NCBI GenBank assembly: GCA_965214835.1
Contig: CBDCCK010000002.1
Coordinates: forward strand, 2,144,001-2,208,000
Source of the DNA: Nitrosopumilaceae archaeon
Lineage (GTDB): Archaea; Thermoproteota; Nitrososphaeria; Nitrososphaerales; Nitrosopumilaceae
DNA: 64,000 nucleotides
Reading direction: 5' to 3'
Position 1 is the stretch's first letter; the number at the start of each line of letters is the position of its first letter. This document shows, piece by piece, positions 13,836 through 58,577 of the stretch. The notes under the pieces were generated by a model that was not told the origin of the DNA, ran no database searches, and was given only the letters and a program-made list of their open reading frames with translations. Position numbers and translations under genes: made by a program.

Positions 13836-14073
13836 ATCTGGTTGTACTGCTCTAACTATGGTAGCGATCAAAAGTTTGAGCACATGTGGGTATAAACTAC
13901 GCAGGAAGGCGATTTTGATCAGCCGATCCCAGTCATCATGATGAGCAACGATAGAAAGAACACGGGCTATTACCGACTCTACGAGCAAAAGCTCATCGGG
14001 ATCGTCAGTGAAATCGGTCAAAATGACGGGGCCGCCGCGGCATCCTGAGTCATCCGCGAAACAGATATTTGTC

Positions 14074-15123
14074 ATGCAGGACGGAGTGACAGCATTGTCA
14101 AACGCAGAGCCAGAGGTGGGATTGAAGTTGTGGGGGGGGGGTACGGCTCTGGCATGCAATAGCGGCAGGGTGTCGCTTCTAATCCGGGTCTACAACGGGG
14201 AAAAGTACCTGGTGCCGTGCATAGAGTCCGCGCTTGCACAGACGTACGGCAACATCGAGGTCATAGCCGTAAACGACGGCTCCACGGACGGGTCAGCCGA
14301 GATACTGGGGCGGTACTCTGACAGGATCAGGATAGTCGACACAGAGCACGCGGGACGCTCGGCTGCCTACAACGCGGGGATCGCCCACATGACCGGGGAG
14401 TGGCTTGCAGTCCTGGACTATGACGACGTAATGTATCCTGACGCCGTAGAGAGGCTCGTCGGGGCCGCCGAGGGGCTTGACTCGTCATCGGCTACCAGGG
14501 TAATACCGTTCTTTGATCTGCAGATGCTGGGATCCGACGGAAGGCCAAACGGCAGGACGCAGTCGTACCACATGGACAACTCCATGGACGCGCTGGAGCA
14601 GGGCGCCTCGATGTTCATCATGTACTTTGGACAGATGTATGTCTCCATACTTCACAGATCGATTCTTGAGGACGTCGGGGGATTTGACGAGAGCCTTGGC
14701 CGAGGCGAGGACATAGAGTTCGGCATGCGGCTGACCGTAAACCACGGGTACAGGTTCCACCACGTTCCGGGCATCATATACGGGTACAGGCAGCACGGCG
14801 GGCAGGGCAGGCTGGGCTCAAGGGAGAGGAACGCCATGAGGCGCAGGATCCTGGAGCTGACCGTAGACAGGCTGGACGGGCCGGACAGGAGGAGATACGC
14901 CGAGGCCAGCAGGAGGATCGGACGCAGGTTCGTCGTCACATCTGCGTGCCGTCGCGCCGATCACACTCTGAGCTCGTTTGCGTACGGCGCCCATGAGGGT
15001 ACGGCGGCACGGCTTGCGGCCAGAGCGCTCGGGGCCCTGCTTGAATGCGGGCCCGCGCGCCGTCTCGCGGGCCTGCTGACGTACCGCCTGAGAACCGCAA
15101 GGATTAGGCCGCGGGAGGGCTGA
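14074..15123 (+). CDS. Family-2 glycosyltransferase (start uncertain; G10 tract near 5' end)
   Basis: YNGEKYL..CIESALAQTY, VNDGSTDGS, LDYDD, GGFDESL..GED. Confidence 0.88.
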   Translation: MQDGVTALSNAEPEVGLKLWGGGTALACNSGRVSLLIRVYNGEKYLVPCIESALAQTYGNIEVIAVNDGSTDGSAEILGRYSDRIRIVDTEHAGRSAAYNAGIAHMTGEWLAVLDYDDVMYPDAVERLVGAAEGLDSSSATRVIPFFDLQMLGSDGRPNGRTQSYHMDNSMDALEQGASMFIMYFGQMYVSILHRSILEDVGGFDESLGRGEDIEFGMRLTVNHGYRFHHVPGIIYGYRQHGGQGRLGSRERNAMRRRILELTVDRLDGPDRRRYAEASRRIGRRFVVTSACRRADHTLSSFAYGAHEGTAARLAARALGALLECGPARRLAGLLTYRLRTARIRPREG

Positions 15124-15219
15124 GCCTGCCCACTACGGCCTGATGCTTCTGATCCAGTAATGTGACTTGCAGTCAAAGCTGAGCGGGAGGGCTGAGCCTG
15201 CCCACTACGGCCTGATGCT
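15111..15219. repeat. 37-bp perfect direct repeat flanking a 35-nt insert
   Basis: GCGGGAGGGCTGAGCCTGCCCACTACGGCCTGATGCT at 15111-15147 and 15183-15219. Confidence 0.95.
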
Positions 15220-15227
15220 GCGCCTGA

Positions 15228-15590
15228 GAGGCGGCTCACGATTGGCAGGCTATGACCCACGTGAGCACGAATCCATGCCTGCAGGATCAAAACACCCAAA
15301 GCCCGGCACAGATCATGCGTCTAATCTACAGACTGGCAAGAAACCTACCGGTGCTCCGGATGTTTGAGGGAATGGCCGGGCTCGGCCTGTTGTGCGCCGG
15401 GATGCAGGAAAAGCAGAGACCAAGAAGATGATGCCCCCGGGAAGAGTGATCCGTCAAAAGCCGCGTGGGTGCCCGGATCTTGCTGTCATCTTGTTGAGCA
15501 GCCTAGCAGGGTGGTTCTTGCAGGCATTCTGAACCGTTTGGCGCACATCCGCATGCGCGTGATCAAAGCCTGCCAATTGTGAATCGCCTC
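15228..15590. mobile_element. Non-autonomous element with about 35-bp imperfect TIRs
   Basis: GAGGCGGCTCACGATTGGCAGGCTATGA vs reverse complement of right end GAGGCGATTCACAATTGGCAGGCTTTGA; no clear TSD. Confidence 0.6.
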
Positions 15591-15623
15591 CCTGCCACAG
15601 GGCGAATCACAGGTGTAGCCGCA

Positions 15624-16511
15624 CTACCGGAAGTTCTTCCAGGGAAGCCTGCGCCCCAGGATCCTCTCCGTCTCAGACACGTCGTCCCGGAGAAAGTCCC
15701 GCAGCCGGTGCCTGTCTGACGGGCTCATCTGCGGTTTTGGCCTTCTTTGTCTCAGGATTCTTTCGGTAGCAAACGTCCTGATGGGGGATGGGATGCGCTT
15801 CTGGGCTGACAGCGGTATGAGATCTATGACTTTGAGCAATGCATGAAAGCGGTGGACATGAAAGCTGTTGTGGGCCTTGAGAACGAACGAGTCAAGGTCG
15901 GCAGTACACCCCCTTCCCACAAAGTCCAGCAGGCCGGCCACAGTATCCCTCGGGTTTTCGACCAGATCCTCGAGGAGTATCACCTTGACGTTCTGCCTCC
16001 CAAAGGCAGAAATCCACATGGACAGGGGCTCAGAATAGTAATACTTGTTTGACTTTCTGAGATCCAGCAGATCGCTGTCGTTGTTGATGTCGTTGCGGCA
16101 TATGTCGCCATAGTTGCCGTCGACGAAACGGCCAACTGTTTGTGCAAAAGTTGCGGCAGTCCTTTGCCATGTCAGGATCTCAAACAGGAACCGCGAAAAC
16201 AGCTGCTCGACGGGATCCCTCAGGGTGATCAGGATTTTTGCGTCCGACCGGACTGCACGGATCCGCCGGCACGCCGTACTGCTAAAGTAATATTGCGAGG
16301 GGTCGACAATCACCCTCTCGTCTCTGACGCCACTGTAACGCGAAAGGTACTGCCTCTTGGTGATATTGCGCAGAAAGTAGCTCGTATCCTTCACTGAAGG
16401 AACGTACATCCCACGGATCCCCCTCAGAATGTGATACATCGTAGTCGTTCCTGTTTTTCCGGGGCCGACATAGAAGAGGTTGGGCCACCTCACGGCATCA
16501 GCCTTGCGCAT
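15624..16511 (-). CDS. Sulfotransferase family protein
   Basis: PAPS loop PNLFYVGPGKTGTT, AKILITLRDPVEQLFS. Confidence 0.88.
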   Translation of the reverse strand: MRKADAVRWPNLFYVGPGKTGTTTMYHILRGIRGMYVPSVKDTSYFLRNITKRQYLSRYSGVRDERVIVDPSQYYFSSTACRRIRAVRSDAKILITLRDPVEQLFSRFLFEILTWQRTAATFAQTVGRFVDGNYGDICRNDINNDSDLLDLRKSNKYYYSEPLSMWISAFGRQNVKVILLEDLVENPRDTVAGLLDFVGRGCTADLDSFVLKAHNSFHVHRFHALLKVIDLIPLSAQKRIPSPIRTFATERILRQRRPKPQMSPSDRHRLRDFLRDDVSETERILGRRLPWKNFR

Positions 16512-57538: not shown

Positions 57539-58577
57539 ATGAATCTAAACAAGTCAGGCGTACAGTGGATAGTACGCCAAAAGCAAAAGGGAGACATGAC
57601 AAACGCCCAGATAGCCGAATCCATGAACGTCTCGGTCCGCTGGGTACAGAAACTGTGGGCCCGGCACAGGTCAGGCACCGTACAGGACATATCGCACCCC
57701 GCACGGATGGGAAGGCCCCAGAACGGCATGCCCGGGCGCAGGGAGCACTCGGCGGTCCTCTCGGTGCGACCTGGCGGATTCTGGACGTGGCTCAACGAGG
57801 CCGTCCTGGCGCAGGGAGCACTCGGCGGTCCTCTCGGTGCGACCCTCCGAGCACCTAGGCGCGGCATCACTGCAGGATCTCATAAGGGAAAAGACCGGGA
57901 TTAATATCCCGCGACATACACTGCACGGCATGCTAAAGGACGAGGGGATGGCCAGAGACGAGCCCAACGGGCGCAGAAAACGCAGGTGGCTGCGCTGGGA
58001 GATGGAGTATTCCAACTCCATGTGGCACACCGATTGGAAGCAGATACACGGCGGAATGCACGACGGCAGGTGGTTTTTGTGCTACGAGGACGACGCATCC
58101 CGGTTCGTGACCGGATACGGCATATTTGACAACGCGACTACAGAAAACGCCCTCAAGGTGCTTGACGGGGCCATGCAGAAGCACGGCAGGCCCGCCTCCA
58201 TAATGACGGACCACGGAAGCCAGTTCTATGCAAACGAAAAACAGGGTGCAAAGAGGGGGCACAGCGAGTTCGAGGAGAGCCTGGAGGCCCTAGGCATACG
58301 GCAGGTCCTTGCCGGGGTGCGCCACCCGCAGACAAACGGCAAGGTCGAGAGGCTGCACGGCGAGATACAGCGCAAGCTGCACGAGTTTGAGGATATCATG
58401 ATGAGAACAAGCGATCCCATGGATCTGTTCATGAAATGGTACAACTACGACAGGCCCCACATGTCCCTTGACCGGGAGAACCGGGAGACGCCGGCGCAGG
58501 CATATGAGCGCAAGATGCCTCCTGCGGGCGAAACGGTCATAGATGGGCAGACCAGGGAGGAATATCATGTCAGATAG
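57539..58577 (+). pseudogene. IS481 transposase frameshifted by a 73-bp duplication/insertion
   Basis: HTH N-terminus, WHTDWK, DDASR, TDHGSQF, PQTNGKVER, YNYDRPH. Confidence 0.88.
57735..57844. repeat. 37-bp perfect direct repeat flanking a 36-nt insert
   Basis: GGCGCAGGGAGCACTCGGCGGTCCTCTCGGTGCGACC at 57735-57771 and 57808-57844. Confidence 0.95.

Follow-up and report, generated by a model that had tools for sequence, protein, structure and literature searches.

We examined a 64,000-nt stretch of DNA (the window) from a Nitrosopumilaceae archaeon (GenBank assembly GCA_965214835.1, contig CBDCCK010000002.1, here C2, positions 2144001-2208000), focusing on site 1, a short direct repeat around a spacer-sized insert at the 3' end of a family-2 glycosyltransferase (GT2) gene and a candidate scar of off-target CRISPR spacer integration. 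The 3.22-Mb genome has 52.6% G+C in two contigs and encodes archaeal ribosomal proteins, a proteasome, Orc1/Cdc6, the polymerase D small subunit and an archaeal AmoA, the last of which marks the organism as an ammonia-oxidising archaeon. At site 1, two 37-bp copies with 100% identity and start positions 72 nt apart enclose a unique 35-mer (Table 1), confirming in coordinates and letters the perfect repeat, GT2 stop codon included, that had been described from the bare sequence in the original prediction. The structure lies at the start of the intergenic region between two convergent genes, and the GT2 reading frame, stop codon and protein are unaltered because the first copy retains them. Homology to two GT2 paralogues at other loci runs through this first copy and stops where it ends, so the duplicated sequence is native gene and not a CRISPR repeat. 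At least two paralogues of the GT2 gene (window 14000-16000) were found at 76–87% DNA identity, at C2:1060325-1061171 and C2:1849704-1850610, and the genome is abundant in insertion sequence (IS) copies and in glycosyltransferase and sulfotransferase paralogues.

Table 1 Repeat-insert-repeat sites of the window and the genes around site 1, in positions counted from the first nucleotide of the window.
Feature	Position	Strand	Remarks
Site 1, first target copy, 37 bp	15111..15147		Last GT2 codons and TGA stop (15121-15123)
Site 1, insert, 35 nt (36 if the ambiguous base is counted in)	15148..15182		Spacer-sized, 43% G+C
Site 1, second target copy	15183..15219		3' non-coding, between GT2 and the convergent sulfotransferase gene
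GT2 gene, target at its 3' end	14008..15123	+	PF00535, 108 bits, E 5.7e-31
Convergent downstream gene, sulfotransferase domain, context	15624..16511	-	PF00685, E 1.8e-09
Site 2, first copy, 37 bp	57735..57771		Within an IS-type transposase gene (rve integrase core)
Site 2, insert, 36 nt	57772..57807		Period 73
Site 2, second copy	57808..57844		Exact duplicate; second exact site in the window

Comparable structures were sought across the whole genome by collecting all exact direct repeats with a 14-nt seed and a spacing of at most 200 nt. With gaps of 28–45 nt, repeats of 36, 37, 38 and 39 bp occurred 94, 55, 23 and 8 times, compared with only 0–6 at each length from 19 to 35 bp, and the scan showed a sharp peak of exact repeats of 36–38 bp set 30–42 nt apart; a sharp length peak had been foreseen at 37 bp, and it was located at 36–37. 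Most of the counts at 36–39 bp stem from true arrays, and clustering resolved the repeats into two arrays and 46 isolated two-copy sites, each with a repeat sequence of its own. Three of the 46 were left out as tandem or low-complexity sequence (C2:546457, 2212075 and 3012002), four because repeated elements carried additional copies of an event already counted (1624026, 2343414, 2692095 and 1966990), and two repeated-element families were set aside (1308256 and 1736693, with the same layout in their relatives), leaving 37 independent sites. A mismatch-tolerant scan added about 12 sites with 1–4 differences between the copies, and these diverged sites are older events. At site 2, the period shifts the frame and thereby splits the transposase open reading frame (ORF). 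Repeat-insert-repeat structures recur in several copies of the two repeated-element families (C2:1308256, 1624026, 2343414 and 2692095; also 1736693, 2257292 and 1995597), with layouts of 42 + 37 nt and 39 + 36 nt that are also present in diverged relatives elsewhere, possibly as old off-target integrations spread by a mobile element.

Duplications at the 37 independent sites measured 36 bp (15 sites), 37 bp (11), 38 bp (3), 39 bp (2) or 33–35 bp (6), and a model of a 36-bp duplication extended by chance matches at its ends expects 19.7, 10.6, 4.3 and 1.6 sites at 36, 37, 38 and 39 bp. Since the length spectrum fits this model, the 37 bp of site 1 are best read as a 36-bp duplication plus one chance-matching base. 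Inserts were 30–42 nt long with a mode of 36 and all differed from each other, while the periods were 72 (14 sites), 73 (9), 75 (5), 74 (3), 76 (2), 71 (2) and 69 (2), site 1 having a period of 72. A third repeat copy was found in none of the 37 sites, none having grown past one spacer, so that 'scar' describes them better than 'neo-array', and 'neo-CRISPR', as site 1 had been called, is too strong a term.

The genome carries a CRISPR-Cas system with matching dimensions. Cas1 had a single match in the genome, an open frame for a 566-aa Cas4g/Cas1g fusion (NF049935 cas4g_cas1g, 754.8 bits with a cut-off of 560, residues 22–566), which is followed by cas2 (TIGR01573, 32.1 bits with a cut-off of 24.5); PF09707, not the right Cas2 family here, gave no match. 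Genes are ordered cas4/1-cas2-leader-array-IS630 transposase-cas3g-cas8g2-cas7g-csb2, with open frames and scores above the cut-offs for cas3g (630 bits, cut-off 400), cas7g (140.7, 38) and csb2 (210.7, 45), while cas8g2 scored 100.8, under its cut-off of 125. The array holds 148 repeats of 36 nt (ATTTCCGCAACGATAAAGTTGCGGCCCCATTGAAGC) and 147 spacers of 37 (54), 36 (45), 38 (18), 39 (16), 35 (7) or 40 nt (4), and array and isolated sites shared a median period of 73 (Mann-Whitney P = 0.35). The 36-nt array repeat together with the Cas4g/Cas1g fusion sets the ruler at 36 bp and the subtype at I-G, and site 1 fits as 36 + 36. The original prediction was therefore right that cas1, here fused to cas4, and cas2 would be present, and close on spacer length, as the spacers are mostly 36–37 nt, while its 37-bp array repeat, its 37-bp ruler and its type I-B assignment give way to a 36-nt repeat, a 36-bp ruler and type I-G. 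Within the array, the leader-proximal unit (C2:2482178-2482275) has a 26-nt spacer and a period of 62, and one unit further in has a 51-nt spacer and a period of 87. A second, small degenerate array of the same repeat family with about 8 repeats, in which one spacer occurs twice, lies at C2:135800-136400 and is adjoined by a cas3g fragment that covers only model positions 664-853 (C2:130078-131259).

We compared each site with its deduced empty junction, composed of the left flank, one target copy and the right flank, and 14 of the 43 listed, 13 of them independent, proved to have uninterrupted paralogous copies across this junction. The empty paralogue of the site at C2:717492 is 99.5% identical over 437 nt, and site 2 has seven uninterrupted paralogous copies, the best of which is 99.1% identical over 437 of 437 nt. 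For a sister site in one of the GT2 paralogues (C2:1849910), the window's own GT2 gene serves as the uninterrupted form, and the sister insert is present in contigs of two public sequencing runs. An orthologous empty site was also found, in that the congeneric genome G002 has one diverged target copy and no insert at the position corresponding to C2:1668572, upstream of rpl13.

Fourteen inserts, at 11 of the 37 exact and 3 of the about 12 diverged sites, copy other chromosomal DNA over their full or nearly full length. A TTN motif (TTC, TTG or TTT) adjoins one side of 8 of these 14 sources, compared with 12% expected by chance (P = 6 × 10−5), one of the eight depending on a 1-nt boundary call. 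By contrast with the 11 of 37 exact-site inserts, none of the 147 array spacers matches the chromosome (Fisher's P = 6 × 10−9). The simplest reading is that self-derived spacers are purged from the expressed array by self-targeting and are harmless at silent off-target sites. The one array spacer with a match in the organism's own DNA (1 of 147, at C2:2485136) matches 36 of 37 nt at C1:6366-6401 on the smaller contig, in a giant GT2 gene, with TT upstream and then a mismatch at the first base. This 13-kb contig carries IS66 and IS110 transposases as well as glycosyltransferase, methyltransferase and laminin-G repeat genes, with no replication gene seen on it, and it looks like an unplaced piece of the chromosome rather than a plasmid or virus. 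The insert of site 1 (43% G+C, compared with a mean of 48% in array spacers and the 52.6% of the genome) has no second copy anywhere in the genome, no exact match in IMG/VR or in metagenome contigs, and, allowing up to 3 mismatches in 300 genomes of the family, no match other than the window itself. The search of genome and virome that had been proposed as a check thus yielded no origin for this insert.

Four of the 14 inserts were drawn from 900.2-906.4 kb, within 6.3 kb beside an Orc1/Cdc6 origin, which suggests a hot spot of spacer uptake close to the origin. The stretch at C2:899800-906410 is the probable chromosomal replication origin; it contains a tract of 33% G+C, a 35-nt repeat, orc1/cdc6, the gene for the polymerase D small subunit and the maximum of the cumulative GC skew. 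We take the 35-nt repeat to resemble an origin recognition box.

Among 61 genomes of the family, this one included, 7 encode a cas4g/cas1g fusion above the cut-off. We scanned 400 kb around the cas locus in three of the relatives (386 kb in G066), judging candidates by their dimensions only, and found 6 clean candidates in G055, at least 3 plus two three-copy loci in G066, and 1 in G004, a genome of the same genus with 38% G+C and a near-identical repeat; the corresponding 400 kb of the present genome holds 11. In G043, where no cas4g/cas1g was found, a 400-kb region, which as a single region is a thin control, contained no candidate in the size class and one 37-bp repeat with a 25-nt gap. The three-copy loci of G066 are at C1:2939634-2939811 and C1:2989807-2989960 of that genome. 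In the first, the 36-nt unit opens with the last 11 nt of G066's own canonical repeat and runs into neighbouring sequence, which looks as if two integrations in a shifted register near the array had produced a two-spacer neo-array.

Target preferences were assessed at the borders of 39 sites. The first duplicated base was G at 36 of 78 borders (P = 1.2 × 10−4) and T at 6 of 78, and T occurred two bases upstream (position −2) at 2 of 78 (P = 2 × 10−7); a loose motif cAGG/G is visible, with the slash at the border; the leader ends in GGG before the array repeat. An expectation-maximisation search over the orientation of 15 sites gave no convincing motif. The sites are unevenly spread along the chromosome, with 10 of the 37 in the 140 kb of C2:2330000-2470000, compared with 1.6 expected, in a region that was picked after viewing the data. 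This cluster is close to the minimum of the cumulative GC skew (~2.35 Mb, a possible terminus) and also immediately precedes the cas locus (2.48 Mb), so that the two possible causes are not separable.

The dimensions, the cas genes, the sources of sister inserts with their motif and the empty sites support the off-target integration that had been predicted, and we conclude that site 1 is very probably the scar of a full-site spacer integration into non-CRISPR DNA by the organism's own type I-G Cas4/Cas1-Cas2 complex. There seem to be about fifty such scars in this genome; the agent, and the membership of site 1 in the class, are inferred. In the proposed mechanism, the complex would capture a prespacer of about 36 nt. 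In canonical adaptation, the leader-proximal 36-bp repeat would be attacked at its two borders, on opposite strands, by the two 3' ends of the prespacer, and filling of the gaps would then duplicate that repeat. At site 1, the same paired attacks, 36 bp apart, would have fallen on the 3' end of the GT2 gene, and once the gaps were filled, the new spacer would have stood between two copies of a 36-bp chromosomal segment that includes the stop codon. Such a unit lacks a CRISPR repeat and is therefore probably not processed into CRISPR RNA.

Several observations weigh against this interpretation. Site 1 is assigned to the class by its dimensions only, as the searches found no source of its insert and hence no readable protospacer-adjacent motif (PAM). 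Empty forms were recovered for 13 independent sister sites through paralogous copies and for one through an orthologue, but not for site 1, for which a DNA search of 30 relatives returned only paralogues and a contig of G002, the closest relative, that ends before the site. Logan contigs, being built from 31-nt words, cannot distinguish a filled from an empty allele at a 37-bp repeat, and where no contig bridges the stretch this counts neither for nor against either form. Six of the 14 insert sources have no TTN, and 6 of the 37 duplications are shorter than 36 bp (33–35 bp), so that either the ruler or the boundary calls are imperfect. The targets hardly resemble the array repeat (mean identity 12.3 of 36, compared with 10.4 for random 36-mers, a value inflated by trying several windows). 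Finally, the side of the PAM, at the seven sites where it could be assigned, was not aligned with the GG/G border in a comparison made by eye.

We weighed four other origins for the structure. An integrase or transposon-like system unrelated to Cas1, whose short insertions would each come with a set duplication of about 36 bp, would account for a layout that is formally a target-site duplication around an insert and for targets that are scarcely like the CRISPR repeat. However, no sequence, ends or inverted repeats are common to the inserts, which derive from dispersed chromosomal loci next to the I-G PAM, the duplication and insert lengths equal those of the resident repeat and spacers, and the footprint occurs in the sampled cas4g/cas1g relatives and is absent from the one sampled genome without the fusion. 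Such a system is very improbable, and the integrase with a 37-bp ruler that had been offered as an alternative is not needed. A replication or repair accident, in which a template switch or templated insertion brought in 35 nt from another place and duplicated the neighbouring sequence, is just as improbable: it would explain why some inserts copy chromosomal DNA and why four sources adjoin the replication origin, but would leave unexplained why, at 37 or more separate places, the duplication is fixed at 36 bp, the insert measures 35-40 nt and TTN adjoins the source, and why the length peak is sharp.

A decayed mini CRISPR array, or a solitary repeat unit, has a still smaller probability. It shares the repeat-spacer-repeat layout, and a small degenerate array does exist at C2:135.8-136.4 kb, but the idea is practically refuted by the 37 bp being local gene sequence, to which two GT2 paralogues show homology at their 3' ends. 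The two copies at site 1 are moreover identical to each other and unrelated to the 36-nt repeat (11 of 36 positions match); where an array has at least three copies of a recurrent, non-local repeat, site 1 has two copies of a GT2 3' end.

Public reads bear on the remaining alternative. In all four runs examined, from two studies, the Logan contigs agree without mismatches up to 15140 and again from 15190, a break that is expected at site 1 because a true repeat of this length exceeds the 31-nt words, and no contig of the four runs joins across a 72-nt skip, while the insert bins have depth. An assembly artefact is thus the least credible explanation, since mis-joins can make short direct repeats and the contigs do not bridge the structure, but the contigs of every run stop and restart inside both copies as at a real repeat longer than 31 nt, no contig omits the covered insert, the sister insert at C2:1849910 is present in two runs, and mis-joins would not give each of 37 sites an insert of its own, nor the right PAM.

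The E. coli type I-E repeat is 28 bp long. Nivala, Shipman and Church (2018, Nat Microbiol) reportedly found non-canonical integration by the E. coli I-E Cas1-Cas2, giving rise to 'neo-CRISPR' loci. Texts citing that work place the detected off-target events in E. coli that over-produced Cas1-Cas2 and describe the support from two other species as no more than 'circumstantial evidence'. The sites described here resemble those loci in having a spacer-sized insert in a repeat-length duplication of non-CRISPR DNA, attributed to the same enzyme family and a two-step staggered integration. They differ in being natural and fixed, in their number of about 50, in their archaeal host, whose Cas4/Cas1 fusion is of type I-G and whose ruler is 36 bp, and in the lack of second spacers. 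Pyrococcus furiosus Cas1-Cas2 makes paired off-target attacks one repeat length apart in vitro, with a preference for guanine (PMC6698737). Opposite-strand attacks one repeat length apart, as proposed here, and a G preference at the borders are shared with our sites; that work used plasmid substrates, a 30-bp ruler and sites sharing several bases with the repeat, whereas here the resemblance is weak and the insertions are heritable.

The Cas4/Cas1 fusion and Cas2 have a counterpart in the Geobacter sulfurreducens I-U (now I-G) system, for which the published work reports an upstream TTN PAM, a predominant spacer length of 36 bp and TTN in ~50% of unique spacers (PMC6547450), compared with TTN at 8 of 14 sources here. 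That study concerns the array only (PCR of expanded arrays) and its text does not contain the term 'off-target', and the gene order differs from the one found here. Direct target duplication is also a property of IS and miniature inverted-repeat transposable elements (MITEs). Unlike these, the present sites have no conserved element, inverted ends or transposase cargo, and their inserts are unique and 30–42 nt long; at site 1, no inverted-repeat pair was listed at the insert ends and the insert is single-copy, in agreement with the view that it lacks terminal inverted repeats and is neither an IS nor, by the same token, a MITE. In full-text literature searches, no paper turned up that describes numerous natural events within a single genome, or any such events in ammonia-oxidising archaea or type I-G systems. 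The neo-CRISPR mechanism is known while its natural scale here is not, and this genome is an unusually rich natural case.

We also assessed the effects of the insertions on genes. Periods were a multiple of three at 21 of the 37 isolated sites, compared with 62 of 147 in the array (42%; P = 0.052), which is a trend only. Ten in-frame sites fall within frames that remain open, with hosts that include, by Pfam, a DNA methylase (C2:2810732-2811292) with its 24 extra residues inside the domain, transposases of the IS3 and IS630 types, a GT2 paralogue, a PMT-type glycosyltransferase and, in their N-terminal portions, a sulfotransferase and an HtrA-like protease; for some of these, the true start codon may be further downstream than the inserted segment. 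Elsewhere the longest frame is shortened, from 390 to 220 aa (C2:717492), 294 to 134 aa (C2:1652870) and 379 to 316 aa (site 2).

A broader view, to which we give somewhat less than even credence, is that the type I-G module acts as a chronic low-fidelity insertional mutagen in this ammonia-oxidising archaeal lineage. Under this view, about fifty heritable insertions of ~72 bp in one chromosome would form a natural ledger of naive uptake unfiltered by interference (~30% self-derived, with a hot spot at the origin and TTN at about half of the sources), the scars would shape genes through in-frame inserts of 23–25 residues and split ORFs, and in a relative they may seed mini-arrays in a shifted register. 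Dozens of dated scars, exact and diverged, make it possible to read from natural DNA which ruler a I-G integrase uses and which borders it prefers, and the excess of self matches in inserts over array spacers shows uptake before interference removes self spacers. CRISPR adaptation would carry a measurable mutational cost and may supply protein insertions, and CRISPR finders could mislabel scar units as 'mini-arrays' in annotation.

Beside the cas locus, a minus-strand gene directly after the I-G effectors (C2:2500868-2504002) encodes a 1045-aa UvrD/PcrA-like helicase with a C-terminal Cas4-like nuclease (TIGR00372, 67.5 bits), and a similar frame lies near the cas locus in the relatives G004 and G055.

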